This document shows, in pieces, positions 8,319 through 35,940 of a stretch of DNA of 38,805 bases (its first letter is position 1; the number at the start of each line of letters is the position of its first letter). The notes beneath the pieces were generated by a model that ran no database searches, was not told where the DNA came from, and saw only the letters and a program-made list of their open reading frames with translations. The translations under genes and the position numbers were made by a program. The stretch comes from a virus. Location: UHGV virus genome UHGV-0123934; one strand, 5' to 3'.

Positions 8319-8479
8319 TATATTACATTGGTTATCAATATGAAAACGGAGTGCGATTAACTTTCTATTAAAAAATATGTAAAAAATTATGTAGAGAACA
8401 AAAATTTACTTACCTTTGCAAAAGAAACCCACGAGTGCGAGTCGTGGGCAATGTAAAAACATATAAATACGTTTTTCTA

Positions 8480-9112
8480 ATGAAAAACTTTACAAAAGTA
8501 AGTTTATTTTCGGATTCTACAAATTCCGAGGAACAAAAAATCTATGAGTCGATGACTCGATTCGTAAGTAAAGAACTTTATTTGCTTCCTCAAATGATTG
8601 GGGATGCTTATTCTGAAACTAATGACGAATTGGGGATTCTTCCACCTCACGCAAGAAGGCGGAATAGCCGACCTGTTCGAGTAAATGAAAAGATAGCCCA
8701 GAAATGTGCTGAAATCTACCCCGAATATTTCAGAGAAGTTTCGAGTGGTAAATTTATGCTTTATGTACCGGGATTCGCTCAATTTCACATTGTGAAAACG
8801 AATAGGGGCAAATTGCCTCCCAGACGTACTCGACAAGCTCAAAATGAGGTATATCAACAGAACCTACCATTCAAAGGTTGCCCAATTTTGCATATCGGTC
8901 ATGATCATCAATATGGTCATACAAGTGTAACCTTAATGTTATATGATGCAGGACAATGCGTGTGGAGTTGTTCTTTCAGTGATATTTTGTACATCCAAAA
9001 CTCTACAGCGGAACAGACTATTTCATTGACGCAAACATATAATGATTCTAAGGAGGTTTTTGCCAAGCCAAAAGCCAATGCTCGAAAGAAGGTGACAGTA
9101 GAGGCTATTTGA
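8480..9112 (+). CDS. hypothetical protein (AT-rich island cargo; candidate effector partner of the HTH-ImmA gene)
   Basis: First ATG (8480) of ORF 8435..9112; AT-rich codon usage unlike neighbours; preceded by TAccTTTG -7-like motif (8411-8418) and a 7-bp-stem hairpin (8428-8448); 31 nt upstream of HTH-ImmA gene on same strand. Confidence 0.5.
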   Translation: MKNFTKVSLFSDSTNSEEQKIYESMTRFVSKELYLLPQMIGDAYSETNDELGILPPHARRRNSRPVRVNEKIAQKCAEIYPEYFREVSSGKFMLYVPGFAQFHIVKTNRGKLPPRRTRQAQNEVYQQNLPFKGCPILHIGHDHQYGHTSVTLMLYDAGQCVWSCSFSDILYIQNSTAEQTISLTQTYNDSKEVFAKPKANARKKVTVEAI

Positions 9113-9143
9113 TGCGGACAATTTGTGAGAGCTTAAATGATAT

Positions 9144-10250
9144 ATGAATGTTAATAACAAAATGATCACTATCGCACGAGAAGTGCGAGGAATGACTCAG
9201 ATGCAATTATCTGCGTCTATACCTAAACTATCTCAAGGAAATCTCTCAAAAATGGAAAAAGGGATTATTGGGGTTACGGAGGAAGTTATTGAGAAAATAG
9301 CCTCTGCCCTCAATTTTCCCGTTTCGTTCTTTTATGAAGAATATACATTCCCTCCATTTAGCAATGTATATTACCGAAAGCTCATTACGGCTTCTGTCAA
9401 AAAGATGTCTCAATTGGAGGCTATCTTTAAAACAACTATGTTTGTTGTAGACAACTTGTTGGAGTCTATTGATATCCCAGAATATACCATCCCAGAGTTG
9501 GATGTTGAGAATGAATTTGCAAAAACGAATACAAACAAGACAACCCAGCGAGTTGAAGATATTGCTCGAAGAGTTCGTTTTGTATTGGGCATTCCAGATG
9601 GACCAATAACAGATATTTCGGATATTCTTGAAAAAAATGGTATTATCATTATTGAAATAAATACTGATATGGCAAAATTTTCAGGAATGTCTGCCCAAAC
9701 TCAGAATGGGGCAAAAATAATTTTCTTAAACGGAAATATGTCCAATGATCGTAAGCGATTTACCATTGCTCACGAATTAGGACATATTGTCATGCATATT
9801 CCTTTCATTGCAATATCTGAAGATAGAGATTTGGAGAATGAAGCGAATGTTTTTGCAGGCGAATTTTTAATGCCTTATAAGGATTTTCGTAAAGATGTCT
9901 CTCAATATTTATCATACAACCATTTGGATATGTTGAAGGCATATTGGAGAGCATCGAAACAGGCGATTATTCGAAAGGCATATCAAGATCAAATTATTTC
10001 TGCACAGAAATACCAATCTTTGATGGTACAAATGAGTATGAATGGGGAAAGAAAATGCGAACGCATAATTGTTGATTTCCCTGATCCTAAATTATTAAAA
10101 AAAATAATAGATGTTTTTTACGATGATTTAGGTTATACTCAAGATGACCTTACGCAAGCTATTAGTGTAAATCTTAATAGTTTGCCTTTAATGATTAATA
10201 AAAGACCTAATATGATTTTATTGAGGTCCAAGACCAGAATACAATTATAG
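9144..10250 (+). CDS. XRE-family HTH fused to ImmA/IrrE-type zinc metallopeptidase (COG2856-like)
   Basis: N-terminal HTH (MITIAREVRGMTQMQLSASIPKLSQGNLSKMEKG) and HEXXH motif in FTIAHELGHIVMH followed by E at ENEANVFAGEFLMP. Confidence 0.8.
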   Translation: MNVNNKMITIAREVRGMTQMQLSASIPKLSQGNLSKMEKGIIGVTEEVIEKIASALNFPVSFFYEEYTFPPFSNVYYRKLITASVKKMSQLEAIFKTTMFVVDNLLESIDIPEYTIPELDVENEFAKTNTNKTTQRVEDIARRVRFVLGIPDGPITDISDILEKNGIIIIEINTDMAKFSGMSAQTQNGAKIIFLNGNMSNDRKRFTIAHELGHIVMHIPFIAISEDRDLENEANVFAGEFLMPYKDFRKDVSQYLSYNHLDMLKAYWRASKQAIIRKAYQDQIISAQKYQSLMVQMSMNGERKCERIIVDFPDPKLLKKIIDVFYDDLGYTQDDLTQAISVNLNSLPLMINKRPNMILLRSKTRIQL

Positions 10251-12236: not shown

Positions 12237-12815
12237 ATGAAACTACGAATTCCAAACTCGGAAGTTCAAGAACTTCTAACCGACAAGTCTTTTGAGTATC
12301 CTAAATACGCGACTCAAATTATGAACTTGGCGAATCAAAATGCACAAGGTACTCGTCCGAATATTGTAGGTCAAATGAGCGACCTGATTCAAGAATTCGG
12401 AGCGGGATCGATGATTGAATGGGATGCTTGGTATAAGAACGGTCACCCGGAAGCGATTAAGACTGCAACCGAACGAGTATATCGGATGATTGAATTATTT
12501 AAAGAGAGTATTCAGACCATCGATAAGGATATGGTCCGAAAATGGATCGAAGAGCTTGTTGTTGTCAAAACTTATTGCGGATTAAAATTCCAAGAGGCCA
12601 TTCTCCGTAAAATTGCAGAAGAAAAGCAGTCGGACTACAGATTGGCGACCCCAGAAGAAGAAGCACAAGGTATAGATGGATTCATTGGAAATTCCCCGGT
12701 TAGTATCAAGCCGATCACGTATCGGATTATGAATGAACTACCGGAGCACATCGATGTGCCGATTATTTACTATGACAAGAAGAAATCAGAAATAGTGGTT
12801 GAATATAATTTTTGA
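12237..12815 (+). CDS. putative type II restriction endonuclease (or REase subunit)
   Basis: 192-aa AT-rich ORF convergent with the DNA methyltransferase in the same island; call rests on gene context only. Confidence 0.35.
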   Translation: MKLRIPNSEVQELLTDKSFEYPKYATQIMNLANQNAQGTRPNIVGQMSDLIQEFGAGSMIEWDAWYKNGHPEAIKTATERVYRMIELFKESIQTIDKDMVRKWIEELVVVKTYCGLKFQEAILRKIAEEKQSDYRLATPEEEAQGIDGFIGNSPVSIKPITYRIMNELPEHIDVPIIYYDKKKSEIVVEYNF

Positions 12816-12819
12816 TATT

Positions 12820-13440
12820 ATGCCATATACTGGAGGACCATTGAATACATTAAATGGGAAAATGGGTATTTCTGCTCCGGAGAATAGTGTACCTGTTATG
12901 AAATTAATTCGCATACATCATCCTAAAAGTAAAGAGGAATTAGTCGAATTAATAAAATGGCATTCTGAAAACAAGTGTGAATGCGGTATTATTAGTAGAG
13001 GAACGGTTGAACAATTTGGGAAAAATTTATATGAAGCTCAAAAAGCATTTTGGGGAGAATATAAATTTTCATTAGCAATATGCATCCAATGGGAATATGA
13101 TTTATTTGTTTTACAATCATTAAAAGGTTCTTTGGTTGAAGATGCTGCTATTAGGACTTTAGAGACCCAATTAGAGCCTGAATATGCTTTTTTAGAAGCA
13201 ACCGGTTATATGGATGAAGAATTGCGAATTGATATTATTTGCAAATATAACAATAGCATTATTGCCGGCATTCAGGTCAAACCTTTAACATTTTTAATGA
13301 TGAGACGAGAAATTATTACTTATAATGCTATGGCTAATCAAAAATGGGATAAACCTGTATATTATTTATATTATGACGAAAATGAAAATTTCGTAAATAT
13401 TGAAGAAGTAAAGTCTCATTTAAAATCATCGATTCTTTAA
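12820..13440 (+). CDS. hypothetical protein, R-M island (possible second REase subunit or specificity factor)
   Basis: ATG at 12820, 5 nt after the upstream stop; AT-rich; stop overlaps the MTase stop (convergent). Confidence 0.35.
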   Translation: MPYTGGPLNTLNGKMGISAPENSVPVMKLIRIHHPKSKEELVELIKWHSENKCECGIISRGTVEQFGKNLYEAQKAFWGEYKFSLAICIQWEYDLFVLQSLKGSLVEDAAIRTLETQLEPEYAFLEATGYMDEELRIDIICKYNNSIIAGIQVKPLTFLMMRREIITYNAMANQKWDKPVYYLYYDENENFVNIEEVKSHLKSSIL

Positions 13441-14582
13441 AATGTTAATGCAATCTGCGTTCGGGAAGGAATAGAAATAATACGCTTTCTATTCCCTACT
13501 TTTATTTCAGCAGTGACCGGAATAGTGTCCGCATATTCAGCAGTAATCATGTGATTGTTCCCTCTTATTGCAGATAAATAGACGAACCGCATATCTGTTT
13601 CTTGTGAAGTCATGACCGGCATCTGGAGATGCTCGTTGAAATGTTTGATCTCTTTATTTTGCGTTCGTTGCGAAACGAATTCTTTATGTGCTGCTATTCG
13701 ATTAGCAATAACTTCGTTCATTTGGTCAACCGATGATGAATGAATATTATCGGCTATAATATCTATAAACTTATCATCAATTTCATAACCAATACTATTG
13801 CGATTGCTCATGATAGATGCAATCGTAGTTGTACCGGTTCCTAAAAAAGGATCCATTACCGTATCTCCTTGCAACGAATACATATTGATTAGACGGTATG
13901 GAACTTCCAATGGATAGGCTGCACTCCTGTCTCGACTTTCTGCTGATATTTTTTGTTTGGTACCTTTTATATTGTCCCACAAATCGGAAAACCACACATT
14001 GCGTTCCTCCCAAAAGAACGAACTCTCACGGCGTTTCTGTTTGTCTATTGCAGATTTGAATTCGCGTTTACCTCCTTTGCGAAAAATCAAAATCCATTCG
14101 TGTTCCAATGTTACATATGCTCCTGCAGGAAGCATTCCGGACCCCATAAATTTATTTGGAGCATTCGTTTGCTTCCTCCAAATAATGTTTGGAAGATTTA
14201 CATACCCGTGAGCGGTGAAATAGTTAATTATACGGGAATGATTGGAGTATAAAGCAAAATTGCCATTGAATGTTCGCGTCGCATCACCGACATTGATACA
14301 GACGATTCCACCCGGGACAAGGACACGTGTCACCTCATCCCATACTTTATCCAGCTCTTGATGCATTAATTCAAAAGCCGCATCCGGCTGGTTTTCATCA
14401 AGGGCATTTGCAATACAAGGATTTTGTTTGCTTAATATCTCATCCCACATTTGAATCATGGGATATGGCGGAGATGTAACGACTAACTCGACCGAGTTGT
14501 CATTAATTTCTTTCATCTGTTGGGCAGCCCCAGTATATATGCTATGCGTTGTCTTCATAATTTCAAAGCAAAGATAATTCAT
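13437..14582 (-). CDS. DNA methyltransferase, beta-class amino-MTase (N4-cytosine or N6-adenine)
   Basis: Motif IV TSPPY near the N-terminus and motif I DPFLGTGTT further C-terminal (IV before I = beta class). Confidence 0.85.
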   Translation of the reverse strand: MNYLCFEIMKTTHSIYTGAAQQMKEINDNSVELVVTSPPYPMIQMWDEILSKQNPCIANALDENQPDAAFELMHQELDKVWDEVTRVLVPGGIVCINVGDATRTFNGNFALYSNHSRIINYFTAHGYVNLPNIIWRKQTNAPNKFMGSGMLPAGAYVTLEHEWILIFRKGGKREFKSAIDKQKRRESSFFWEERNVWFSDLWDNIKGTKQKISAESRDRSAAYPLEVPYRLINMYSLQGDTVMDPFLGTGTTTIASIMSNRNSIGYEIDDKFIDIIADNIHSSSVDQMNEVIANRIAAHKEFVSQRTQNKEIKHFNEHLQMPVMTSQETDMRFVYLSAIRGNNHMITAEYADTIPVTAEIKVGNRKRIISIPSRTQIALTF

Positions 14583-14694
14583 TTCCTCCTATAATCCTCC
14601 ATTATTCAACTTTATTCTAAAATTGCGACAAAGTTTCCTTTTAGAGGCTGTTCGGTGGATTAAGTTTGCTCCCGAAGAATCAATAACGAGATTT

Positions 14695-15894
14695 ATGAGC
14701 AAACTGAAAACCCTTAAAGAGAGCCGTGCTGCCGTGTTCGCAAAGATCGACGAGTTGCGTACCGCGACCGACGGTCGCGAGATGACCTCCGAGGAGCAGG
14801 AGAGGTGGAACACGCTGCTTGCGGAGTACGAGCAGGCCGACCGAGCTGTCGAAGCCGAGGAGCGCTACGTCGATATCGAGCGCCGGCAAGCCGAGCAGCA
14901 GTATGTTCGACAGACTTCCGGCGAGCAGCCCGACGAACGTCGTGCCGAGGAGTACCGCACCGCTTTCCGCGACTACCTGCTGCGCGGCGCAGCGGATATT
15001 TCGCCCGAGCACCGGACACTCTTCGAGCAGCGCGCCGGCATCACGGGTTTGTCGGGCGGCGTGATCGTCCCTTCGTCGCTGGCCGACAGCATCGAGGTTG
15101 CGCTGAAAGCCTACGGCGGGATGTTCGAGGCGGGTTCCATTCTCACCACGAGTAAGGGCGGCGACCTGATTATGCCGACGGTAAACGATACCGATGCGAG
15201 GGCTACGGTCGTTGCCGAATACCAGCAGTCGACCAAGTCCGCACCGTCGTTCGGCTCCGAAACGCTCAAAGCCTATACCTACCGCACGCCCATCGTTCCC
15301 GTGTCGTTGGAGCTGTTGCAGGACTCGGCATTCGACCTCGAATCGCTGCTCTCGGGTCTGCTGGCCGAGTCGTTCGGACGGGGCATCAACTACGACCTTA
15401 CGCGCGGCGACGGCAAGGGCAAACCCAAGGGCATCGTCGAGTGGGCGCACGCCTGTGCTACTAACCCCTCTGCTGCAGGCATCTCGCTCGATGCTCTGAT
15501 CGAGCTCGTCAAGGGCGTGGATTCCTCCTATGCCCGACACGGGCGGTTCATGTTCAACCGCAATACGCTCTACTCGCTCGTCAAGATCAAGGATACGACG
15601 GGACGCTACATCTGGCAGGAGGGTGCGAAGGACGGCACGCCGCCGACCTTGTTCGGCAAGGCGTATATCCTGAACGACGACCTCGACGATGCCGCAGCGG
15701 GCAAGACTTCGGTGTTGTTCGGCGACTTCTCGAAGTTCAAGATCCGTATGGTCCGATCGTTCCGCGTGATCCGCCTGAACGAGCTGCTCGCCGAGTACCT
15801 TTCGATCGGGCTGTTCGGCTTCGCCCGCACGGACGGCATCCTGTTGGACGCCGGTACGCACCCCGTCCATAAGTTGGTGCATAAATCGGCGTAG
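14695..15894 (+). CDS. phage major capsid protein (HK97 family) with N-terminal coiled-coil delta domain
   Basis: ATG 14695 inside ORF 14623..15894; charged coiled-coil N-terminus then capsid-like core; position after prohead protease. Confidence 0.85.
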   Translation: MSKLKTLKESRAAVFAKIDELRTATDGREMTSEEQERWNTLLAEYEQADRAVEAEERYVDIERRQAEQQYVRQTSGEQPDERRAEEYRTAFRDYLLRGAADISPEHRTLFEQRAGITGLSGGVIVPSSLADSIEVALKAYGGMFEAGSILTTSKGGDLIMPTVNDTDARATVVAEYQQSTKSAPSFGSETLKAYTYRTPIVPVSLELLQDSAFDLESLLSGLLAESFGRGINYDLTRGDGKGKPKGIVEWAHACATNPSAAGISLDALIELVKGVDSSYARHGRFMFNRNTLYSLVKIKDTTGRYIWQEGAKDGTPPTLFGKAYILNDDLDDAAAGKTSVLFGDFSKFKIRMVRSFRVIRLNELLAEYLSIGLFGFARTDGILLDAGTHPVHKLVHKSA

Positions 15895-15897
15895 GGT

Positions 15898-16434
15898 ATG
15901 ACGGTAATCGAGATGCGGGAGCCGCCGATCGCGTTGGAACTCGCCAAGCAGCACCTGCGGGTAGGCAGCGCCACCCATGACGATACTTTGATCGCTGCGA
16001 AACTCGACATGGCCGTTGCCGTGGCGGAGGATATGACAGGACGGACCATTCGGGAGAAGAGGGTACGGTTCGACGTATCGATCCCCTCCGACGCTCCCAT
16101 CGTCCGCCTGCCCGTCCCTACGACGCGCATCGAGCGGCTCTCCGTCTCTCGAACCATCGTTCCCGAATCCGACTACACGCTTTTGGAAGACGACTACGAC
16201 CCGATGCTGATTGCTGAGCCGCAGTACGGCGGACAGACTGCGACGGTTACGGCCGTCGTCGGCTACGATCGCGATAATATACCTCCGGCAATCAAGGCGG
16301 CTATTCTCTTGATCTTGGGTACGCTCTACGACAACGAATCGGACAATCTGGTCGGCCGCTCCGTCTCGGAGCTGTCGCTCACGGCCGAAAAACTCCTGCT
16401 TCCGTGGCGGGTAACTCCTTACGGCGATGTTTGA
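15898..16434 (+). CDS. head-tail connector (gp6-like DNA packaging) protein
   Basis: Start ELAKQHLRV...TGRTI typical of gp6-like connectors; directly after the capsid gene. Confidence 0.7.
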   Translation: MTVIEMREPPIALELAKQHLRVGSATHDDTLIAAKLDMAVAVAEDMTGRTIREKRVRFDVSIPSDAPIVRLPVPTTRIERLSVSRTIVPESDYTLLEDDYDPMLIAEPQYGGQTATVTAVVGYDRDNIPPAIKAAILLILGTLYDNESDNLVGRSVSELSLTAEKLLLPWRVTPYGDV

Positions 16435-16744
16435 CACGCGCATCGAAATCCTCGACTACACCGAGGAGCGGGATGAGTACAACGACCTCACGAAATCGCT
16501 CCGGCGCGTCGCCGTCTGCTACGCCCAGCGTACCGAGAACGGCGGTCGGGAAAACCTCTACGCCGGACGCATCGTCCACGAGAACGAAACGGTCTATACG
16601 ATCCGTTGGCAATCCGACCTGCGCCCCGATATGGTCGTTCGCGACGAGGGGTATCTGCGGAAGATAACTTCGATCCACGAGGAGGGACGCCGCTGGCGCC
16701 TGCACCTCAAATGCCGGAAGAGCGATGCTGACGATCGAGGTTGA
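16427..16744 (+). CDS. phage head closure / head-tail adaptor protein
   Basis: 105-aa protein overlapping the connector stop; size and position typical of SPP1 gp16-like head closure proteins. Confidence 0.65.
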   Translation: MFDTRIEILDYTEERDEYNDLTKSLRRVAVCYAQRTENGGRENLYAGRIVHENETVYTIRWQSDLRPDMVVRDEGYLRKITSIHEEGRRWRLHLKCRKSDADDRG

Positions 16745-17249
16745 AGGTTATGCCGAAGCCAAACGGATTCTGGACGAGCTGCCGAACACGATGCAGAAAC
16801 GGATGCTGCTTGCAGCTCTGCGCGCCTCGGCCAAACCGATGTTGCAATCGGCACGGAGCAAAGTTCCCGTCCGCACGGGCAAACTGAAGAAGCAGTTGCG
16901 CACGGTTCGCTACAAGGACCGCAACGCTTCGAAGTCGGAGGTGGCCATCGCCGTGAAGCCGGTCTTCGAACGCACGAAGAAGAAAGGCACCGTGAACGAA
17001 TACTACGGCAAGTTCATCCACGAGGGGACTGCCGATCCTCGCACTTCGAAAAAGGGCAGGCTGCTGGTCTTCGACGATGTGCAGGGTAAAAAGGTCTTCG
17101 TCCATAGCGTAAAGGGCATCCGGCCGACGCCTTATTTGGAGCAGGCTTATACGGAGAACTCCGAGCGTACGGTCGCACTTTTCGGCGACGAGTTGGCTGC
17201 TGCGGTCGAGAAGTTCGTGAATAAAAACTTCAAACCGGTATCGAAATGA
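16725..17249 (+). CDS. HK97 gp10-like phage protein
   Basis: PVRTGKLKKQL motif, size and synteny. Confidence 0.6.
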   Translation: MLTIEVEGYAEAKRILDELPNTMQKRMLLAALRASAKPMLQSARSKVPVRTGKLKKQLRTVRYKDRNASKSEVAIAVKPVFERTKKKGTVNEYYGKFIHEGTADPRTSKKGRLLVFDDVQGKKVFVHSVKGIRPTPYLEQAYTENSERTVALFGDELAAAVEKFVNKNFKPVSK

Positions 17250-17602
17250 TGGATTTCAAGAAACATCTGATCGCGCTTTTGGAGCGTGAGATTCCAGAAT
17301 TGGCGGATAAGATTCAAGCCGGTGCGGTCGATGCCCGGACGCCTGCGCCTTTCGCCGCGTTCTCCGTACCGGAAGAGACGCCCGTAAGGACGCTACACGG
17401 CATCGTCGGCTATCGGACGATGTTCGAGGTAGCGGTCTATGACAGCAGGTTCTCCGGTGCGGAACGCCTCAAGCATCGGGTGATCGCCGCCTTGGAGGGT
17501 GCGGAGTTCGACGGCAAGCGCAGCCGCTTCGTCTCCTCGGCGGCGGAATACTATGCAGACTACGACGTGCACGGTGCGACGATGACATTCAGAATTGTTT
17601 AA
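17246..17602 (+). CDS. putative tail completion/terminator protein
   Basis: 118-aa ORF overlapping upstream stop (ATGA), last gene of the head-tail joining block; no motif. Confidence 0.4.
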   Translation: MMDFKKHLIALLEREIPELADKIQAGAVDARTPAPFAAFSVPEETPVRTLHGIVGYRTMFEVAVYDSRFSGAERLKHRVIAALEGAEFDGKRSRFVSSAAEYYADYDVHGATMTFRIV

Positions 17603-18242
17603 CCCAATCCGTAAAATCGAGTTTTATGAGTTGCCAGATTTTATTTTCAAGACAAACAGGGTCGGGATCACCATCCGCTCTCGTAAAATCGGTCAATCCC
17701 GCAAGGCATTCTTCGCGCGATGCTCCGTAGGGATATCGTGCTGCGTATAAAGCGAGCAGCTGCTCGATAGAATAGGCATTATGAAGAAGATGCAAATCCC
17801 AAAAGTCCTTTTTACGGCCGCCGCGGGCGATAACATCCATCTTCATCGCAACGATGTCGTCTACGGACGCCATACGGATCGTATCGTGCTGCTCTGCCGG
17901 GCGGATGAAGTCATCCGTATAGAACAGGTCGAGTTTTACGGACTTTTCCCGGTTCTGTCCGATGATATATGAGGCCCCGAAGCCGACGATTTCTCCGCAA
18001 TCACCCTGACAATAAGGAAACTCTTTGCGCAGAATATCCTGCAATTTATGGAAATCCAAAGATCTATACTCGGCATCGGTAAATAGATCTATATCGTCGG
18101 ACATACGATGTCCATAGCGCAAACTGAGCGAGGTGCCGCCGACAAGGCGGAACGGGGCGAATGCTTCGAGAGTCATCAGATGTTCGAGTGACGACCGCAG
18201 AATGGGTTTGACAGTATGGTATTGCAACGCTTTATGCTTCAT
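17589..18242 (-). CDS. nucleotidyltransferase, AbiEii/AbiGii toxin-like (DUF1814-like)
   Basis: N-terminal FRLVGGTSLSLRYGHRMSDDIDLF (GGT...S.DIDL polymerase-beta-like NTase signature); start overlaps upstream partner. Confidence 0.75.
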   Translation of the reverse strand: MKHKALQYHTVKPILRSSLEHLMTLEAFAPFRLVGGTSLSLRYGHRMSDDIDLFTDAEYRSLDFHKLQDILRKEFPYCQGDCGEIVGFGASYIIGQNREKSVKLDLFYTDDFIRPAEQHDTIRMASVDDIVAMKMDVIARGGRKKDFWDLHLLHNAYSIEQLLALYAARYPYGASREECLAGLTDFTRADGDPDPVCLENKIWQLIKLDFTDWVKQF

Positions 18243-18753
18243 AATCGAGATATTGCTTCAGGTTCTTTTTGATAACCGATGAGAATGGAGATGACGGCGA
18301 TAATCCGATCTTGCTTAAAATGGTTTCTCGACCATAAAAACGGATGGTTTCGATGATCTCTTCTTCATTGCCTCGCTCCATTACGCGATTGATAACGTAA
18401 CTGCTATGGGCATCCCAATTGATATTGTCGAACGATGTGTCCCAAAACAGGGAAGGTCGGTATTTTTCGAGATCCGGATGGTGAGCGGACGAAAGTTTTC
18501 GCTTCTCCTGCACAATGTCGTAGTGAACCTGCAGGGTCATGAGTATGCCTTCCTCTAATGCGAGCGCATGTTCGATTCGCAACGACAGCGGAATATTCAT
18601 CGACCTGCGGCCGCGAATAATGGCGCTTATGGTTTGGGGGTGCTCACCGATAGATTTAGCGAACCGACCGCTTTTCAGGTTTCGATTATTCAGCTCGCGT
18701 TGTAAGAAGAGTCCCGGATGTACTCCTTTCAGTATGTCGATTAAATTGTTCAT
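18232..18753 (-). CDS. HigA-like HTH antitoxin/regulator with C-terminal extension
   Basis: VHPGLFLQREL ... ISAIIRGRRSMNIPLSLRIEHALALEEGILMTLQVHYDI resembles the HigA/VapI antidote HTH; 11-nt overlap with the NTase gene; ATG at 18753 (track start 18762 is TTG). Confidence 0.6.
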   Translation of the reverse strand: MNNLIDILKGVHPGLFLQRELNNRNLKSGRFAKSIGEHPQTISAIIRGRRSMNIPLSLRIEHALALEEGILMTLQVHYDIVQEKRKLSSAHHPDLEKYRPSLFWDTSFDNINWDAHSSYVINRVMERGNEEEIIETIRFYGRETILSKIGLSPSSPFSSVIKKNLKQYLDYEA

Positions 18754-18817
18754 ACAACGCAAAAGTAAACATATTTGTTTATTTTAACAAATTTTATGCC
18801 GAAATATTTTTACGCTT

Positions 18818-19258
18818 ATGCCTGAAACTTACGGAAACAAACAGGTCGTCCAAGGCGAGGACATCATCCTCTTGGTGGACGATAAGACGACGCTCCACGC
18901 CACGACGCACACGCTGAAGGTGGATTTGGAGATGAAAGAACTGCGCACGAAAGATACTGACGGCAAAGAGAAGTGGCCGGGCGATGTTTCGTGGTCGGTG
19001 GACGGCGACGGACTGGTGGTCATCGACGATTCGATCGAGAACAGCCATACCGCCGAGGAAGTCCTCGACTTGGTGCTTCAAAAGAAACTCGTCGAGGTGG
19101 TCGTCAAATCGCCGCTCACGGGACTCGCGAAGATGTACACGGGCAAAGCCTACATCACGACATTCTCGCTCTCGACGCCTGCGGGCGATAACGCTTCTTA
19201 CAGTTATTCGCTTACCGGCAGCGGCAACCTGACACCTGTAGACAAACCTAAATCCTGA
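18818..19258 (+). CDS. phage major tail protein (TP901-1/phi13-like)
   Basis: C-terminal YTGKAYITTFSLSTPAGDNASYSYSLTGSGNL typical of siphovirus major tail proteins. Confidence 0.8.
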   Translation: MPETYGNKQVVQGEDIILLVDDKTTLHATTHTLKVDLEMKELRTKDTDGKEKWPGDVSWSVDGDGLVVIDDSIENSHTAEEVLDLVLQKKLVEVVVKSPLTGLAKMYTGKAYITTFSLSTPAGDNASYSYSLTGSGNLTPVDKPKS

Positions 19259-19263
19259 CCGCA

Positions 19264-19623
19264 ATGAAAGAGATCATCATTCAAGGTACGCCGCGTCCGA
19301 TCCATTTCGGACTGCGCGCCATCGACGAGTTCGTCAAGCAGCGCGGTGCGGAGTTCGGGCAGACGGTCGCTTCGACCGACGCTCTCGGATCGCTGGACAG
19401 CATCGTTGCGCTGACCGCTACGGGTCTCAACGAGGGCGCACGGCGTGCCGACAGCGACCGTCGCTACACCGAAGACGAGGTGTGGGACATCTTCGACGAG
19501 GAGCCGTCGCTCATCCTCGCTGTCTCGGAACTCTTCGTTGAGAGCATCGCGCCGCTGACGGATAAGTTGGGCGACCTCTCAAAAAACGGGAAACGCCCGA
19601 CGACGGGGAGCCGCAAGCGGTAA
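19264..19623 (+). CDS. tail assembly chaperone (gpG-like)
   Basis: 119-aa acidic protein right after the major tail gene; slippery heptamer near its 3' end. Confidence 0.6.
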   Translation: MKEIIIQGTPRPIHFGLRAIDEFVKQRGAEFGQTVASTDALGSLDSIVALTATGLNEGARRADSDRRYTEDEVWDIFDEEPSLILAVSELFVESIAPLTDKLGDLSKNGKRPTTGSRKR

Positions 19624-19946
19624 CCTACGAGCGGTGGTTCGCCATCGCCGTCGGGCAGATGGGACTGGCACCCGAAGCCTTCGAACGCCTGACGCCCGCC
19701 GAGTTCATCTATGCGTGGCTCGGCTGGGCGAAACGCGAGGAAGACCGGCAGCGGCAGGCATGGGAGCGCGAACGGTGGGCGGTATGGGTTACGACTTGCA
19801 TCCAGCTTGACCGCAAAGACCGCCGACCGATGACCGAGATGTTCCCGCTGCCGTGGGAGGAACCGACGGCTCCCGCAAAGCAAGAACCGACCATGCAGGA
19901 ACGCATGGAACGAATCGAAGAAATGAAACGATGTATCCGAAAATAA
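19264..19946 (+). CDS. tail assembly chaperone G-T fusion via predicted -1 programmed ribosomal frameshift
   Basis: A_AAA_AAC heptamer at 19581-19587 in the gpG frame; the -1 frame is open from the slip site through ORF 19659..19946 (KKRETPDDGEPQAVTYERWFAIAVGQMGLAPEAFERL...). Confidence 0.55.
19581..19587 (+). other. -1 slippery heptanucleotide A_AAA_AAC
   Basis: Codons tca aaa aac in the gpG frame; manual frame tracing shows no stop in the -1 frame downstream. Confidence 0.55.
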
Positions 19947-20440
19947 CCTTGATTATCCTGACGATCGCAGCCAGCGGCTGCTCTCCGCTCCGAAGCACGC
20001 GATCCGAGCGGCACGAAACGCTTGCCATCTCCGACTCGACTGTTACGGAACTGGTCCGGCAGGAGTTCGGGCGGCAGATCGGAACGCTCCGCCGAACCGT
20101 CGTGGAGTTTTATCCGCCGACGGAATATCCGGAACCGAGCGACGATCGATTCCCGAATCCGATCGATACGCTCCGTGCCGTTCTTTCGCCTCCGAAAATT
20201 CCGGCGGCGAGCGCTTCCCGACAGCCGGTCAAACGCATCTCCTATACCGAGGTATCGATGCAGAATGACCGAACTATCCTTATCGACAGCATTTCGCATA
20301 GCCGCATCAACACGGCAGCCCGCAACGACGTGCAGGAGCAGACCGACGAGCAACCATCCTCCGGTGTCGCGTGGCTCAAATGGGCGACGGCGCTCGTCGC
20401 ACTGACGCTTCTGCTGCTCTTATTCCTCAAACTCCGATAA
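19931..20440 (+). CDS. putative lipoprotein with C-terminal membrane anchor
   Basis: ATG 19931 inside ORF 19853..20440; signal peptide with lipobox LTIAASGC; C-terminal hydrophobic helix WATALVALTLLLLLFL. Confidence 0.5.
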   Translation: MYPKITLIILTIAASGCSPLRSTRSERHETLAISDSTVTELVRQEFGRQIGTLRRTVVEFYPPTEYPEPSDDRFPNPIDTLRAVLSPPKIPAASASRQPVKRISYTEVSMQNDRTILIDSISHSRINTAARNDVQEQTDEQPSSGVAWLKWATALVALTLLLLLFLKLR

Positions 20441-20450
20441 CCGAACCCAT

Positions 20451-21233
20451 ATGGCAAGATTGAAAACTCCGATTTCATACTATGGCGGCAAGCAGATGCT
20501 TTTGAAGCATATCCTGCCGCTGATTCCCGAACATACGCTCTACACGGAAGCCTTCTGCGGCGGCTGCGCCGTGCTGTTCGCCAAGCCGCCCGCGCAGTGC
20601 GAAGTCATCAACGACACGAACACCGAATTGGTGAACTTCTACCGCGTGGCGCAGACCCAGTATGCGGCACTCAAGGCGATGATCGACGCGACGCTCCACA
20701 GCCGCGAGATACACGCGCACGCACGGCATATCAACGAGCATCCGTCGTTCTTCACGCCCGTCGAGCGGGCTTGGGCTGTATGGGTCTGCACGAAGTTGGG
20801 CTTCGCCTCGATGATCGACGGAACGTTCGGCTACGACCGCAGCGGTACGACGACGCTGAAACTCCGCAATGCGAAAGAGGCCTTCACCGAGGAGTTGTGC
20901 GGACGCCTCGGCCGCGTTACGGTCGAGTGCGAGGACGGCATCGATGTCATCCGCCGCTACGACTGTCCCGAGGCGTTCCACTTCGTCGATCCGCCCTATG
21001 TCGGCAGCGACTGCGGACACTACAACGGTACGTTCGACGAGGAGGATTTTTCGAGGCTGCTCGACACGCTCGCAACGGTCGAAGGGAAGTTCATGCTCAC
21101 GATGTTTCCGCACGAGAAGATCGAACGCCTCGCCGCCCGGCACGGCTGGACGATCCATCGGCTCGACCGCACCATCACCGCCTCGAAAGTTTCCCGCCGC
21201 CGGCAGGAGGAGTGGATTACGACGAACTACTGA
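20451..21233 (+). CDS. dam: DNA adenine methyltransferase (Dam-like, alpha class)
   Basis: N-terminal ISYYGGKQMLLKHILPLIP...EAFCGGCAVLF and motif IV FVDPPY. Confidence 0.85.
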   Translation: MARLKTPISYYGGKQMLLKHILPLIPEHTLYTEAFCGGCAVLFAKPPAQCEVINDTNTELVNFYRVAQTQYAALKAMIDATLHSREIHAHARHINEHPSFFTPVERAWAVWVCTKLGFASMIDGTFGYDRSGTTTLKLRNAKEAFTEELCGRLGRVTVECEDGIDVIRRYDCPEAFHFVDPPYVGSDCGHYNGTFDEEDFSRLLDTLATVEGKFMLTMFPHEKIERLAARHGWTIHRLDRTITASKVSRRRQEEWITTNY

Positions 21234-21240
21234 TACCGAC

Positions 21241-22017
21241 GTGGGTACATTCGCTTACGATAACCCCGCTTACATCGCTTCGTGCTCGTTCGGCAAGGAT
21301 TCGATCGCTACGATCCTCCTTGCCCTCGAATATGGCGAGCCGCTCGATGCCGCTGTCTTTTCGGAGGTGATGTTCGACCATCGGCGCAATATCAGCGGCG
21401 AGATGCCCGAACACATCGAGTGGATCTATTCGACGGCGATTCCGCGTCTTGCCGCCTTGGGCGTACGGGTCGATGTCGTCCGTTCGGAGAAAGACTATCT
21501 TACGTTATTCCATACGGTCATAGGGAGCAGTACGCATAAGGGTATGCTGCGCGGCTGGCTCATCGGCGGCAAGTGCTGCGCCAATCGCGACCTCAAAATC
21601 CGGCCTATACATCGCTATTATGCCCGTTATCGAGAGCAAGGCATCGTGCAGTACGTCGGCATCGCGGCCGACGAACCGAGACGCCTCGCGCGGATGCAGG
21701 ACAAAGGGTATAACCGTAAAACGAGTCTGCTCGCCAAGTACGGGTACACCGAGGCGGACGCCCGACGCAAGTGCGAAGAATACGGTCTGCTGTCGCCTCT
21801 CTACCGCACCTCGCATCGGGGCGGTTGCTGGTTCTGCCCCAACTGTCGCATTCCGGTCTTCGCCGAACTGCGCCGCCGCCATCCTGAATTGTGGCGTGAA
21901 CTGCAACTGCTTTCGAAGGTCGGAAATAAGTCCTCCGAAGGTTTCAAATACGGGCTGACTTTCGAGGAGGTCGAGCGGCGGATGGATCTCTTCGAACACT
22001 CACCGACGCCATTCTAA
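21241..22017 (+). CDS. PP-loop ATPase, PAPS reductase/QueC-like family protein
   Basis: PP-loop SFGKDS near the N-terminus, C-terminal Cys cluster GGCWFCPNC; start uncertain (GTG 21241 is the first start after the dam stop). Confidence 0.65.
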   Translation: MGTFAYDNPAYIASCSFGKDSIATILLALEYGEPLDAAVFSEVMFDHRRNISGEMPEHIEWIYSTAIPRLAALGVRVDVVRSEKDYLTLFHTVIGSSTHKGMLRGWLIGGKCCANRDLKIRPIHRYYARYREQGIVQYVGIAADEPRRLARMQDKGYNRKTSLLAKYGYTEADARRKCEEYGLLSPLYRTSHRGGCWFCPNCRIPVFAELRRRHPELWRELQLLSKVGNKSSEGFKYGLTFEEVERRMDLFEHSPTPF

Positions 22018-25175: not shown

Positions 25176-26216
25176 ATGAAAGCCTATACCTATATCGAAC
25201 ACGGGCGGTTCGAGCTGCTCGACAAGCCGGAACCCGCCTTGCAGGACCCTCGCGACGCCATCGTGCGCGTGACGCTCGCGAGCATTTGTACCAGCGACCT
25301 GCATATCAAGCACGGCAGCGTACCCCGCGCCATTGAGGGCATCACCGTCGGCCACGAGATGGTCGGCATCGTCGAGGAGGTCGGGTCGGAGGTGCGCAGC
25401 GTAAAGGTCGGCGACCGCGTGACGGTCAACGTCGAGACCTTCTGCGGCGAATGCTTCTTCTGCAAGCGCGGCTACGTGAACAACTGCACCGATCCCGACG
25501 GAGGCTGGGCACTTGGCTGCCGCATCGACGGCGGGCAGGCGGAGTATGTCCGCGTGCCGCATGCCGATCAAGGGTTGAACCGCATTCCCGATACGGTGAG
25601 CGACGAGCAGGCATTGTTCGTGGGCGATATTCTGGCTACAGGTTATTGGGCGGCGAAGATTTCGGAGATTGCGCCCGACGACACGGTCCTGATTATCGGT
25701 GCCGGACCGACGGGTATCTGCACGCTGCTTTGCGCAAGATTGAAGCGCCCGAAGCGAATCATCGTCTGCGAAAAATCGCCCGAACGGCGGCGATTCGTGC
25801 GGGAACACTATCCCGAGGTGCTGACGGTCGCACCGGAGGAGTGTCGCGAGGCGGTTTATGCGAACAGCGACCGTGGTGGCGCCGACGTCGTGCTGGAGGT
25901 GGCCGGTGCGGAGGATACGTTTCGCCTGGCGTGGGAGTGCGCCCGCTCCAATGCGACGGTTGTTATTGTTGCGCTCTACGACCGGCCGCAGATGTTGCCG
26001 CTGCCCGACATGTACGGCAAGAACCTCACCTTCAAGACGGGCGGCGTAGATGGCTGCGACTGCGCCGAGATACTCCGGCTGATCGAGGCGGGCGAGATTG
26101 ACACCACGCCGCTCATCACGCACTGTTATCCGCTCGGCCGCATCGCCGAGGCATACGACCTCTTCGAAAACCGCCGCGACGGAGCGATCAAGGTGGCTAT
26201 CGATTGTACCGAATAG
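25176..26216 (+). CDS. zinc-dependent alcohol dehydrogenase family protein (MDR superfamily)
   Basis: Catalytic-zinc signature GHEMVGIVEEVG, structural-zinc Cys cluster CGECFFCKRGYVNNC, Rossmann motif LIIGAGPTG. Confidence 0.85.
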   Translation: MKAYTYIEHGRFELLDKPEPALQDPRDAIVRVTLASICTSDLHIKHGSVPRAIEGITVGHEMVGIVEEVGSEVRSVKVGDRVTVNVETFCGECFFCKRGYVNNCTDPDGGWALGCRIDGGQAEYVRVPHADQGLNRIPDTVSDEQALFVGDILATGYWAAKISEIAPDDTVLIIGAGPTGICTLLCARLKRPKRIIVCEKSPERRRFVREHYPEVLTVAPEECREAVYANSDRGGADVVLEVAGAEDTFRLAWECARSNATVVIVALYDRPQMLPLPDMYGKNLTFKTGGVDGCDCAEILRLIEAGEIDTTPLITHCYPLGRIAEAYDLFENRRDGAIKVAIDCTE

Positions 26217-26241
26217 AGGTATGTATCCGCGCGATAATATT

Positions 26242-26943
26242 TCACGTCAGCGTCCACCCCTTGTCTGTTGCGATCGCTTTTTGGATAGCATTCAGTTTCG
26301 CGAGGTTCTTCGCTCCGATATTGCAGGTCTTGCCATTGCCGGTATCGGATAGCGCGTTCAACAGGAATACCAAACTCTCTACCATGAGTTTCGGACAGCC
26401 GTTCACGGCGATGTCTACATTGACGGGGCCGTCGATGATTACCGTTTCGAGTGCGGAGCAGGAGACGAACGTCGTGTCGATCTTCGATGTTACCTTGCTG
26501 AAGTCAAGTCTTCCGCCGATTTTACGCAGGCTCTTGCAGCCGTGGAACATCTCCGAAGCGGAAGTAATGCGCGAGGTGTCCAGTCCGCCGATCTCCTGCA
26601 AGTTCGTACAACCGTAGAAAGCATACATCATATTCGCGACGTTCGAGGTGTCGAGCGTCGGCACACGCTCCAGCGCCGTACAGCCGTAGCACATCTGATA
26701 CATCGAATCGAACGACGCTGTGTCGAGTGCCGGAAATACCGACATCGTCGTATTGCCCCGAAAGAGCTGGTAGCCGTTGCGGATCTGATTCATTCCGCTG
26801 GTGCTGTCCACCAATGCGACTTTATCGACGAGCGATACCAACGTCTCTTCGTCGGTTATCGCCACGCCTTTGTCGCGTAGCGCCCCGGCAAGGTGCTGCC
26901 GCAGCGCATCGAGCCGCAAAACGAGTGAAGTAAAGTCTGCCAT
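26242..26943 (-). CDS. BspA-type leucine-rich repeat protein (putative tail-associated adhesin/receptor-binding component)
   Basis: Tandem repeats of the F.GC..L..I...DTS....M..F.GC type (MCYGCTALERVPTLDTSNVANMMYAFYGCTNLQEIGGLDTSRITSASEMFHGCKSLRKIG). Confidence 0.65.
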   Translation of the reverse strand: MADFTSLVLRLDALRQHLAGALRDKGVAITDEETLVSLVDKVALVDSTSGMNQIRNGYQLFRGNTTMSVFPALDTASFDSMYQMCYGCTALERVPTLDTSNVANMMYAFYGCTNLQEIGGLDTSRITSASEMFHGCKSLRKIGGRLDFSKVTSKIDTTFVSCSALETVIIDGPVNVDIAVNGCPKLMVESLVFLLNALSDTGNGKTCNIGAKNLAKLNAIQKAIATDKGWTLT

Positions 26944-26946
26944 ACG

Positions 26947-27180
26947 CTATCCGATAATATGGTTCAGTGCCTCCTCGATGCCCGTCAGTCCGAGCGAAGC
27001 GGTCATCGCATCGACCAACGTCGCATAAGTTACGGCAGCACCCGTACCGTTGCGGTCGATTTCGATAAGGTCGGTGGCTGCCAAAGTCGTCACCTTCGGG
27101 AGTTGAGAGAGCGTGATCGTATCGGTATCCGATCCGGTTGCAAGCCGTCCTATAATCGCCCCTGTTTGTTCTGTTGCCAT
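26947..27180 (-). CDS. hypothetical small protein (tail fibre module)
   Basis: 77-aa ORF tightly packed between the tail fibre and LRR genes. Confidence 0.4.
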   Translation of the reverse strand: MATEQTGAIIGRLATGSDTDTITLSQLPKVTTLAATDLIEIDRNGTGAAVTYATLVDAMTASLGLTGIEEALNHIIG

Positions 27181-27184
27181 AATT

Positions 27185-29323: not shown

Positions 29324-29671
29324 AACGACGTGAAAATAACGCTTCGCCGAACCTTTTTCGGGATACAAAGTCCCTAATTCCGAAGAATGCCTTATCTTTG
29401 TAATTGCATTCCGCTCTGTCGGGATGCGACATATTATTCGACTTAACCTCGGAAAAAACTGGTAATTTTTTAGCAAATGGTTAAGCACTCCGTATCCTCG
29501 CATCGAACGGCTCCTGCCGTAAGGTTCGGGATATGGTCATATCCCTGCTTTACGGCGTGGGCTATACGTGCTTATCATTTGCAGGTATACCAGTACCTTT
29601 CCGAGATAGGCGGCAGTAGGCCCACGTTCTTTTTTGTCCGGCGGACAGACGCGATCCTATCTGCCATTTCG

Positions 29672-30181
29672 ATGATTATGAAAGCAACGAATCGAATACC
29701 GGATCGCCGTGTCGTGCGACCGTTGACCGCACGGATATTGCGGTCGTTTCTGGTGGCGTCGGAACGCTCGCATCACCATATTTATGCGCTGTGGGAACAC
29801 GCATCGATCCTGTCATTTGCGATAAAGAATGCAGACGGCGAATATTTGTCTTTGCGAGAGTTTTTCAGCAAGGGCGATGCGGTTGCGCCCGACGATCCGC
29901 TCATCGTCATCTTCCACGAAATGCATATCGAAACCGTGGAAGAATTGACCGCTGAATATATCGAACGCATTTATGAATCGTTTCTCTACCATCATTGCGA
30001 GATGGAATTGCGCCGCAACGCCCCGCTCCGTTTGACTCCGGAATCGATACGACGATACGGCTTGACCGAGGCGGATGCTGTCCTTGTCGGCGAGCATCTC
30101 GAAGTCCTGAACGAGATGATCCGTCGGAAACTCCAGCGGCAATACGACGAACTCAAAGCCTTGGATTGCATTCGGAAGTAG
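29672..30181 (+). CDS. hypothetical protein
   Basis: ATG 29672 inside ORF 29477..30181; GC-rich, divergent from the tail fibre gene, upstream of the SIR2-NTPase gene. Confidence 0.4.
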   Translation: MIMKATNRIPDRRVVRPLTARILRSFLVASERSHHHIYALWEHASILSFAIKNADGEYLSLREFFSKGDAVAPDDPLIVIFHEMHIETVEELTAEYIERIYESFLYHHCEMELRRNAPLRLTPESIRRYGLTEADAVLVGEHLEVLNEMIRRKLQRQYDELKALDCIRK

Positions 30182-30255
30182 TATTTTAAGTACTATCATA
30201 AGTTTTATGGAGTAGATTCTCATTCTTTTTTGCTGGAAATTGCGAAATAAAGAAG

Positions 30256-30279
30256 ATTTTGCTATTTTTATAGCAAAAT
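30256..30279 (+). promoter_or_regulatory. perfect 10-bp inverted repeat attttgctat-tttt-atagcaaaat, operator-like, 8 nt upstream of the SIR2-NTPase start
   Basis: Read directly from the sequence. Confidence 0.5.
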
Positions 30280-30287
30280 AATATAAT

Positions 30288-35137: not shown

Positions 35138-35143
35138 AGCGGT

Positions 35144-35551: not shown

Positions 35552-35555
35552 TGCT

Positions 35556-35930: not shown

Positions 35931-35940
35931 AGTATTGCAC

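Follow-up and report, generated by a model that had tools for sequence, protein, structure and literature searches.

A putative nucleotidyltransferase toxin-antitoxin cassette with a HigA-HTH/DUF6922 partner in the head-tail operon of an Alistipes-associated phage genome

Nucleotidyltransferase (NTase) toxins of the DUF1814 family, which includes AbiEii and the MenT proteins, are a current focus of toxin-antitoxin (TA) research. MenT1, MenT3 and MenT4 modify the 3′-CCA ends of tRNAs, and AbiEii has a pyrimidine-specific NTase activity (PMC10435456; bioRxiv 10.64898/2026.01.19.700257). In the literature consulted, the antitoxins described for these toxins are COG5340 proteins (AbiEi, MenA3 and MenA4), COG4861 proteins, the 68-amino-acid (aa) MenA1, and SanaA. 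A unifying mechanism has been proposed in which unrelated antitoxins make the toxin phosphorylate a Ser or Thr in its own active site (bioRxiv 10.64898/2026.01.19.700257). Here we describe a two-gene cassette in the UHGV virus genome UHGV-0123934, a stretch of 38,805 nucleotides that is referred to below, at its full length, as the window. On the minus strand, a gene for a putative toxin of the DUF1814/AbiEii/MenT family (17589..18242, 217 aa) follows a gene for a putative antitoxin and autorepressor (18232..18753, 173 aa from its ATG) in which a HigA-type helix-turn-helix (HTH) is fused to the Pfam domain DUF6922. The cassette is best explained as a self-contained moron of a temperate Alistipes siphovirus, and we put the probability that it is a functional NTase TA module at about 0.7.

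The assignment of the downstream product to the AbiEii/DUF1814 NTases, made in an original prediction from the sequence alone, agrees with profile, motif and fold comparisons. The protein matches the Pfam family AbiEii (PF08843) with 69.9 bits (cutoff 22.5) at an expectation value (E) of 4.2e-19, above the gathering score, together with 15 PADLOC AbiEii models (best E 5e-8); searches of NCBIfam and PHROGs gave no match. Its public database name is 'AbiEii/AbiGii toxin family protein' (WP_195579412.1). Four AbiEii motifs whose mutation abolishes toxicity have been defined, comprising hG[GS]...DhD with an Arg in motif II, a Lys in motif III and +DxxD in motif IV (Dy et al., 2014; PMC3985639). 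The window NTase keeps all four, as G35-G36 (motif I), R46...D50-I-D52 (motif II), K134 (motif III) and K145-D146-F-W-D149 (motif IV), and the signature FRLVGGTSLSLRYGHRMSDDIDLF quoted in the prediction is present in its translation. In full, its key residues read G35-G36-T37, R46-x-S48-x-D50-x-D52, K103-x-D105, K134 and R143-K-K145-D146-x-x-D149. The fetched loci yielded 103 distinct homologues, with identities to the window protein of 33-99%. In this set G35, T37, H45, R46, S48, D52, K103, D105, K134, R143, K145, D146, W148 and D149 are invariant and D50 is conserved in 102; as far as sequence can tell, this is the signature of an active enzyme.

Ser48, within R46-M-S48-D-D50, lies two residues N-terminal of the first catalytic Asp and is present in 103/103 homologues. 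The phospho-acceptors S78 of MenT3, T39 of MenT1 and T65 of AbiEii occupy the same position (PMC11375011; bioRxiv 10.64898/2026.01.19.700257), and the family profile pairs Ser48 with T39 of MenT1. Ser48 thereby appears to mark the phospho-acceptor position of the MenT/AbiEii family.

The AlphaFold2 model of the NTase has a predicted local distance difference test score (pLDDT) of 72.7 and a predicted template modelling score (pTM) of 0.70. Its best solved matches in Foldseek were JHP933 (E 1e-6), the fungal DUF1814 protein 5uvd, MenT1 (E 5e-5, template modelling score (TM) 0.5-0.6) and MenT4 (E 6e-4), so that the model has the bi-lobed pol-beta-like NTase fold that the original prediction presupposed and is closest to solved DUF1814 proteins. 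A single-sequence phmmer search of the Protein Data Bank (PDB) returned no match, and these solved relatives were reached only through the fold search and the family profile (JHP933 E 9e-8, MenT1 E 7e-5). With 217 aa, the protein groups with the short MenT1/JHP933-like forms and not with AbiEii proteins of about 290 aa. Longer NTases of 299 aa also occur among the homologous loci (numbered with the prefix L), in L141, L143 and L151 (3234-4133), where a C-terminal extension of about 80 aa runs past the usual length of about 220 aa.

Given this fold, the two genes might not form a TA pair at all. The NTase could be a non-toxic modifier, acting on a small molecule or antibiotic in the manner of ANT(2'') or Lnu, or on phage or host nucleic acid for the benefit of the phage, and the HTH-DUF6922 protein could be its repressor. 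ANT(2'')-Ia and LnuA do occur among the fold matches, at E 2.6e-4 to 0.07, and MenT2 is a precedent for a non-toxic DUF1814 protein (PMC10435456). We nevertheless consider this improbable. In profile, sequence and fold comparisons alike, every top match is a DUF1814 toxin or a toxin-like protein, and the DUF1814-specific motif IV (+DxxD) and the phospho-acceptor Ser are invariant. Moreover, the coupled, regulator-first genes, the orphan regulators and the decayed NTases described below fit TA genetics, and settings in defence islands and moron hotspots likewise fit a TA module.

The upstream protein is a HigA-type HTH fused to DUF6922, and it is not an AbiEi. The HTH takes up approximately residues 1-89 (18487-18753, minus strand) and DUF6922 approximately residues 90-173 (18235-18486, minus strand). 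In a sequence search, residues 1-90 matched Proteus vulgaris HigA (PDB 4mcx) at E 1.5e-8, and the protein scored 44.6 bits with TIGR02607, slightly below the cutoff of 47.7. In its structure model (pLDDT 90.5), Foldseek superposed the HTH half on HigA at 1.3-1.5 Å over 75 columns, with 33% identity to P. vulgaris HigA. The public database name is 'transcriptional regulator / HigA family antidote' (WP_229104290.1). DUF6922 (PF21956) was recognized by Pfam with 75 bits (cutoff 27) at E 3.2e-21, again above the gathering score, over residues 102-149 of the 176-aa translation obtained from an alternative TTG start (18232-18762). The original prediction had described a HigA-like HTH, quoted as HPG...ISAIIRGRRS, with a C-terminal extension of 90 aa; the quoted residues are present in the translation, and the extension, of about 85 aa, is DUF6922. 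It is all-helical in the model, and FWDT, R..ERGN and FYG are conserved across the family.

No match in structure searches with the HTH-DUF6922 model reached past the HTH half, a DUF6922-only profile found nothing significant in the PDB, and no mention of DUF6922 was found in the literature searched. Two faint resemblances of DUF6922 were attributed to chance: N-terminal segments of casein kinase II alpha, at E of about 1e-3 with the single sequence, fell to E 0.05-1.4 with the family profile, and Pumilio repeats reached only E >= 0.015 with that profile. Apparent standalone DUF6922 proteins, database entries of 60-145 aa found in a deep search with the DUF6922 half, proved to be truncated gene calls. 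In the DNA of 80 metagenome loci fetched for that subfamily, these entries lie within open reading frames (ORFs) of 170-190 aa, which begin with a divergent HTH-like region and are followed by an NTase gene, and DUF6922 was not convincingly seen on its own.

These features bear directly on whether the locus is an AbiE system in the strict sense, with a diverged AbiEi upstream. Such a system would be consistent with the family of the toxin (AbiEii), with a bicistronic operon headed by the regulator gene, and with the inverted repeat located at the promoter. However, neither Pfam nor PADLOC matches the upstream protein to an AbiEi/COG5340 family, even with a threshold as loose as E<=1. Its DNA-binding domain belongs to the Xre/HigA type of HTH and not to the winged type, and its C-terminal half, all-helical as modelled, is unlike the AbiEi C-terminal domain. 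The NTase, too, is about 70 residues shorter than AbiEii and closer to the short MenT1/JHP933 forms, with 13 residues instead of 15 between the Gly of motif I and the Asp of motif II. Canonical AbiE is already contradicted by the type of antitoxin, the defining feature that was tested, and is very improbable. The original prediction had suspected a variant architecture with a non-canonical partner. That partner is indeed no AbiEi, and the arrangement is no one-off variant, being conserved across Bacteroidota. The prediction also placed AbiE in type IV, a classification now under revision to type VII, in which the antitoxin induces auto-phosphorylation of the toxin (bioRxiv 10.64898/2026.01.19.700257).

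Species-representative genomes were scanned with an HTH-DUF6922 alignment, relatives were confirmed in at least 478 of them, and the best 80 loci were analysed. All but one of these 80 are from Bacteroidota (Bacteroidales, Chitinophagales, Cytophagales and Sphingobacteriales). The sole exception, L021 (JAFVUY010000262.1), is a 5.4-kb contig in a Bacilli metagenome-assembled genome, near-identical to the Bacteroidaceae loci L022 and L023, and its assignment to Bacilli is probably a binning error. Of these best 80, 75 loci could be assessed: 66 have an NTase gene of this family immediately downstream, full-length in 59 and partial or frameshifted in 7, and the other 9 have none. In a separate metagenome sample, the NTase gene was present in at least 62 of 73 loci, a count that becomes 64 when L193 and L194 are included, which a distance filter had scored as lacking an NTase and which do have an NTase match. 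The order HTH-DUF6922 then NTase thus holds in about 88% of assessable Bacteroidota genome and metagenome loci. Searches that started from the NTase found the HTH-DUF6922 gene upstream in 10/10 viral-contig loci (50-99% identity), and the partner was also upstream in 9/9 places listed, reached from six NTase proteins.

Within the window both ORFs are intact, and the stop of the first gene overlaps the start of the second by 11 nt, ATGAAGCATAA (18232..18242, minus strand), which implies a single transcript with coupled translation. The overlapping minus-strand operon of the original prediction is therefore sound, and the arrangement is conserved in homologues, whose commonest stop/start overlaps of 4, 11 or 17 nt are consistent with translational coupling. 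Outside phages, the pair has McrBC and a Dcm methylase (L004), GmrSD and an SMC-like ATPase (L199), or a Dam/ThyA/reverse-transcriptase patch (L197) as neighbours. Throughout Bacteroidota, the two genes move together between hotspots of prophages and defence islands of chromosomes.

The same survey speaks to a reversal of roles of the kind seen in HEPN/MNT modules, where a nucleotidyltransferase is the antitoxin (PMC7641770). The window NTase would then modify a toxic DUF6922 protein, and DUF6922 is without known function. Yet intact HTH-DUF6922 genes stand alone or beside decayed (frameshifted or truncated) NTases in about 30 loci, which would be lethal were this protein the toxin, and among the sampled loci no NTase was seen without an HTH-DUF6922 partner. 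This asymmetry is the pattern that TA genetics predicts if the NTase is the toxin. DUF6922 also lacks the Rx4-6H motif of HEPN proteins, and an autorepressor HTH fused into the first gene is an antitoxin pattern. We regard reversed roles as extremely unlikely.

Two further genes were seen near homologous pairs. A DUF2971-like protein of about 365 aa begins no more than about 12 bp past the NTase in L004 (6666-7778), L199 (4666-5766), L037 (2877-3989) and L011 (6168-7259), all of them non-phage loci. It was rejected as a third core gene, since it occurs in only 4/202 loci and is absent from the window and the other 198 or so, and it could be an optional third component. In L005, a related prophage with the HTH-DUF6922/NTase pair in the same slot as in the window, a separate canonical pair of a HigB-like toxin and an HTH_3 protein (7073-7710) lies one gene beyond the pair, between the tail-completion and neck genes.

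The cassette has a promoter match of its own in the divergent intergenic region (64 bp, 23% GC). This Bacteroidetes-type promoter, TTTG-N20-TACTTTTG (18760..18791, minus strand), has its -33 element at 18788-18791 and its -7 box at 18760-18767, the box ending 6 nt 5′ of the HTH-DUF6922 ATG; the published consensus of the two elements is TTTG and TAnnTTTG. The original prediction ended the locus at 18790 and so took in the promoter, which ends at 18791. Since the alternative TTG falls within the -7 box, the ATG, which is also the start in public gene calls, is the likely start codon. In most homologous loci the -7 box lies at -12 to -14, and the full consensus occurs 3 times in the window versus about 0.35 expected. 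One of the other matches (5′ end 5806) is just upstream of a Fic/DOC-family gene (4847-5734, minus strand) between the integrase and TerS genes, and the third (8523, minus strand) is followed by no evident ORF on the minus strand.

A perfect 16-bp palindrome, TAAACATATTTGTTTA (18766..18781), overlaps the -7 box. It has 6-bp arms and a 4-bp spacer (TAAACA-N4-TGTTTA), a form that occurs once in the window versus 0.05 expected. Upstream regions were compared in 75 distinct versions, from loci with otherwise unrelated flanks, and 67 of them contain the core, AAACA-N4-TGTTT, most often at -25 from the ATG. The rest of the fetched loci, 867 kb in all, has 13 matches. In the pairs that diverge most (L090-L092), the palindrome takes the variant form GCAAACAAATTCGTTTGC. 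Promoter and palindrome accompany the genes across loci, and the palindrome is probably the operator of the dimeric HigA-type HTH, which would imply negative autoregulation as in AbiE and HigBA. The conserved palindrome superseded a first candidate, ATTTGTT-N6-AACAAAT.

By analogy with MenT1, MenT3, MenT4 and Streptococcus agalactiae AbiEii, the free NTase would add nucleotides to tRNA 3′-CCA ends, block aminoacylation and arrest growth. A dimer of the HTH-DUF6922 protein would bind TAAACA-N4-TGTTTA and repress its own operon, and it would neutralize the NTase through direct binding, most likely via the DUF6922 half and possibly by triggering auto-phosphorylation of Ser48. The more tentative parts of this scheme are the role of DUF6922 as the toxin-contacting domain and the benefit to the lysogen. 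The cassette would be expressed from the prophage in a lysogen, and a failure of antitoxin supply, upon superinfection or prophage loss, would leave the toxin to stop translation. The outcome might be an abortive-infection-type defence, prophage addiction, or both. We infer toxicity, neutralization and phage defence by analogy with these characterized relatives.

Several points weigh against this scheme. Overexpression of MenT2, a DUF1814 protein, had no detectable effect (PMC10435456), and S. agalactiae AbiE in Escherichia coli gave no protection against 32 coliphages (bioRxiv 10.64898/2026.01.19.700257). The NTase model is of moderate confidence at its pLDDT of 72.7, with a TM of about 0.5 to its best matches. 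No homologue of DUF6922 has been solved or characterized, and the toxin-neutralizing role given to it is drawn only from linkage and from analogy with two-domain antitoxins; the domain could equally serve in dimerization.

It is also possible, though rather unlikely, that the module serves prophage addiction, stabilizing the lysogen through post-segregational killing, and not defence against other phages. One of the partners is annotated publicly as a 'plasmid maintenance system antidote', the cassette is located in a mobile element, and the failure of S. agalactiae AbiE to defend E. coli points in the same direction. Against this, the pair is also found in chromosomal defence islands with McrBC, Dcm, GmrSD and SMC-like genes, the phage genome bears other defence cargo in the form of a restriction-modification (R-M) system and a SIR2-STAND protein, and Lactococcus lactis AbiE and other DUF1814 systems (SanaTA, RlegTA) restrict phages. 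Addiction and defence, moreover, are not mutually exclusive.

That the TA cassette is a horizontally acquired moron follows from empty sites in relatives, precise junctions, a drop in GC content and the promoter match of its own. It occupies 17603..18812, about 1.21 kb in place of a spacer of about 15 bp in related phages. Its GC content is 46.4%, compared with 59.4% and 59.2% for its two 3-kb flanks, and its GC at third codon positions (GC3) is 0.53, against 0.71-0.78 in neighbouring phage genes, which bears out the lower-GC patch and the phage-carried moron of the original prediction. The junction was compared in 21 viral contigs with relatives of the major tail protein, 20 of which span it. 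In 15 of these 20 the site is empty, the gene for the 118-aa tail-completion protein ending about 20 bp before the tail gene; two (L098 and L100) have the HTH-DUF6922/NTase pair at the junction; two (L106, 2783-3817; L114, 2774-3814) have a 344-346-aa minus-strand Fic-like protein in the slot; and the remaining one, L103, has an empty slot with a divergent pair elsewhere. The contig of L099 is cut within the HTH-DUF6922 gene. In alignments to the empty sites, homology breaks off on the left at the stop codon of the 118-aa gene and picks up again on the right 5 nt short of the major-tail ATG. The Fic-like proteins of L106 and L114 have the motif QPFNDGNKRTAR, with Gln in place of the Fic catalytic His, and their N-terminus looks from its sequence like a winged HTH.

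The gene surroundings, assigned with PHROGs and Pfam, agree with the predicted site between head-tail joining and major tail genes. On the plus strand, portal (10309), protease (11516) and major capsid (14623) genes are followed by those of three adaptor, closure and neck proteins (15898, 16427 and 16725). The gp17-like tail-completion protein (118 aa, 17246-17602, plus strand) directly precedes the cassette, and the major tail protein (18818-19258, plus strand) lies directly beyond it. The NTase and tail-completion genes converge with a 14-nt overlap of their 3′ ends (17589..17602), which leaves no room for a terminator. No terminator was found, the scan for sigma-70 promoters and intrinsic terminators being uninformative for a Bacteroidota host, and the plus strand before the major tail gene has no promoter consensus, so late transcripts probably cross the cassette in antisense. 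Given this antisense position inside a late structural operon with no terminator, late read-through upon induction may shut the cassette off or upset the balance of toxin and antitoxin, tying toxin activity to the lytic switch of the phage.

The protease/capsid junction is a second cargo hotspot of this lineage. Sister phages L090 and L092, with structural proteins 85-99% identical to those of the window, have an empty cassette slot, and their divergent pair (48% and 57% identity) sits at this protease/capsid junction, where the window has an MjaI-type R-M system. Within a single phage lineage, this type of module has therefore entered at least two times, at separate hotspots. In the window this second slot is a low-GC island (12237-14582, 30-43% GC) with MjaI-like restriction endonuclease ORFs at 12237-12815 and 12799-13440 and a convergent N6_N4 DNA methylase gene (13437-14582, minus strand). 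In sister prophages this slot is filled by varying R-M systems, a BsuBI/PstI restriction endonuclease with an N6_Mtase/Eco57I gene (L001/L003) and MjaI (L002).

Further cargo is scattered over the window. An 830-aa protein with SIR2-like and STAND NTPase regions (30288-32780, plus strand, 29-32% GC) adjoins, in antisense, the gene for the tape measure on the minus strand (32777-35137) and has the appearance of a further defence moron. Between the TerL and portal genes, a low-GC island (8435-10250) encodes a 225-aa protein without a family match and a 368-aa HTH_3 + Peptidase_M78 (ImmA/IrrE-like) protein; pairs of this COG2856-Xre type were reportedly proposed as TA systems by Makarova and co-workers in 2013. 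A Dam-like D12 adenine methyltransferase gene (20451-21233) is followed by that of a PAPS-reductase-like protein (within 20869-22017, PHROG 424), and sister prophages have an extra N6_N4 methylase gene in the region equivalent to 20451-22017 (L001, 2040-2999). After the tail-chaperone-like genes, the ORF at 19853-20440 has a lipoprotein-type signal at an internal ATG (MYPKITLIILTIAASGC...) and a hydrophobic segment at its end. It has no family match in PHROGs and may encode a prophage-encoded surface or superinfection-exclusion lipoprotein.

As a whole, the window looks like a complete temperate siphovirus-type genome, with replication genes, an integrase, TerS and TerL, and, on the minus strand, the tape-measure gene and further virion proteins. 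Its nearest protein matches are Alistipes sequences, and a blastn comparison of 14600-22000 with deposited phage genomes yielded no relative, the sole match being a 150-bp methylase stretch. The lack of a tape-measure gene after the major tail gene had suggested a satellite such as a capsid-forming phage-inducible chromosomal island (cf-PICI), which is ruled out by the tape-measure gene at 32777-35137 (minus strand) and by the other virion and replication genes. The distal tail module lies on the strand opposite the head and tail-tube genes, in a region (25176-38805) with the tape measure and with virion proteins at 27185-29503 and 35941-38805. This split-strand tail is an unusual genome layout. 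Between the two strand blocks lie the genes for a Zn-dependent alcohol dehydrogenase (25176-26216), which may be an auxiliary metabolic gene, and a DUF285/BspA-type leucine-rich repeat protein (26242-26943).

It is already known that DUF1814 toxins take diverse partners, and each of the two genes is auto-annotated singly. A further proposal, which we hold tentatively and at somewhat less than even odds, is that HTH-DUF6922 adds a third class, unrelated in structure, to the antitoxins of MenT/AbiEii-type NTases, after the AbiEi/MenA3 type and MenA1, and acts via DUF6922 by auto-phosphorylation of Ser48 or by a new mechanism. As part of the same proposal, the pair would be a Bacteroidota-wide family in hundreds of species, very common in human-gut Alistipes prophages and missed by defence finders that require AbiEi. 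The auto-phosphorylation model has so far been based on two antitoxin folds, and an abundant and easily cloned third partner made of a HigA-HTH and DUF6922 would be a direct test of its generality; if the proposal is true, it would also give a function to an uncharacterized Pfam family. The pair is carried by prevalent prophages of gut Alistipes and Bacteroidales and by defence islands. Because its partner has no AbiEi match in PADLOC, tools that require AbiEi would not call a complete AbiE system, and counts of defence systems in gut Bacteroidota may therefore be too low. The locus is also an example of hotspots with exchangeable cargo within the head-tail operon of a Bacteroidota phage lineage.

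Among described systems, AbiE of L. lactis and S. agalactiae shares with this cassette a DUF1814 NTase toxin that has motifs I-IV and a Ser or Thr phospho-acceptor two positions N-terminal of its first catalytic Asp, a regulator-first bicistronic operon, an inverted repeat that overlaps the promoter, and residence in mobile elements. It differs in its antitoxin, AbiEi being a winged HTH with a COG5340 C-terminal domain whereas the partner here is a HigA/Xre-type HTH with DUF6922. The toxin here is also shorter (217 versus about 290 aa), with a motif I/II spacing of 13 versus 15, and the candidate operator is one 16-bp palindrome instead of two 23-bp inverted repeats. MenAT1 of Mycobacterium tuberculosis (MenA1/MenT1, Rv0078B/Rv0078A) contains the closest functionally characterized toxin (profile E 7e-5, TM 0.5-0.6), likewise a short NTase in a size range of about 190-220 aa, with T39 aligned to Ser48, and it establishes that DUF1814 toxins pair with antitoxins unrelated to AbiEi. 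In contrast to the 173-aa two-domain partner described here, which has an HTH, MenA1 is a 68-aa helical peptide without a DNA-binding domain, and the NTase shares only about 18% identity with MenT1. The top match, both in structure and by profile, is JHP933 of Helicobacter pylori (an HP0986-like putative NTase, PDB 4o8s/4ok0; Foldseek E 1e-6, profile E 9e-8), which is similar in size and keeps the R-F-S-x-D-L-D and K-x-R-D-x-x-D-L motifs. It is about 18% identical to the window NTase and is known from structure only, with no partner or toxin activity established in the literature searched.

HigA of HigBA (P. vulgaris, Coxiella, E. coli and GraA of Pseudomonas) resembles the partner in its HTH fold over the N-terminal 90 or so residues and in its predicted role as an operator-binding autorepressor, and differs in lacking the extra C-terminal DUF6922; the TIGR02607 score of the partner is just under the cutoff. 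The region 17200-19300 contains no HigB-like ORF for a HigB/RelE-type toxin, the only co-oriented neighbour being the NTase gene, and the module is therefore not HigBA. Temperate phages and their satellites carry morons at fixed junctions in defence hotspots, for example those of the P2/P4 type. The present lineage likewise has fixed junctions of a conserved structural operon with alternative cargo: the TA pair, a Fic-like gene or nothing between the 118-aa protein (gp118) and the major tail protein, and R-M systems or the divergent pair between protease and capsid. Unlike the P2/P4-type hotspots, these sites lie inside the head-tail structural operon of a Bacteroidota siphovirus, with the cargo antisense to late transcription. 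Failing one defining feature of canonical AbiE, its AbiEi antitoxin, the module is set apart from that system and filed as a DUF1814/MenT-type toxin module with a new antitoxin class.

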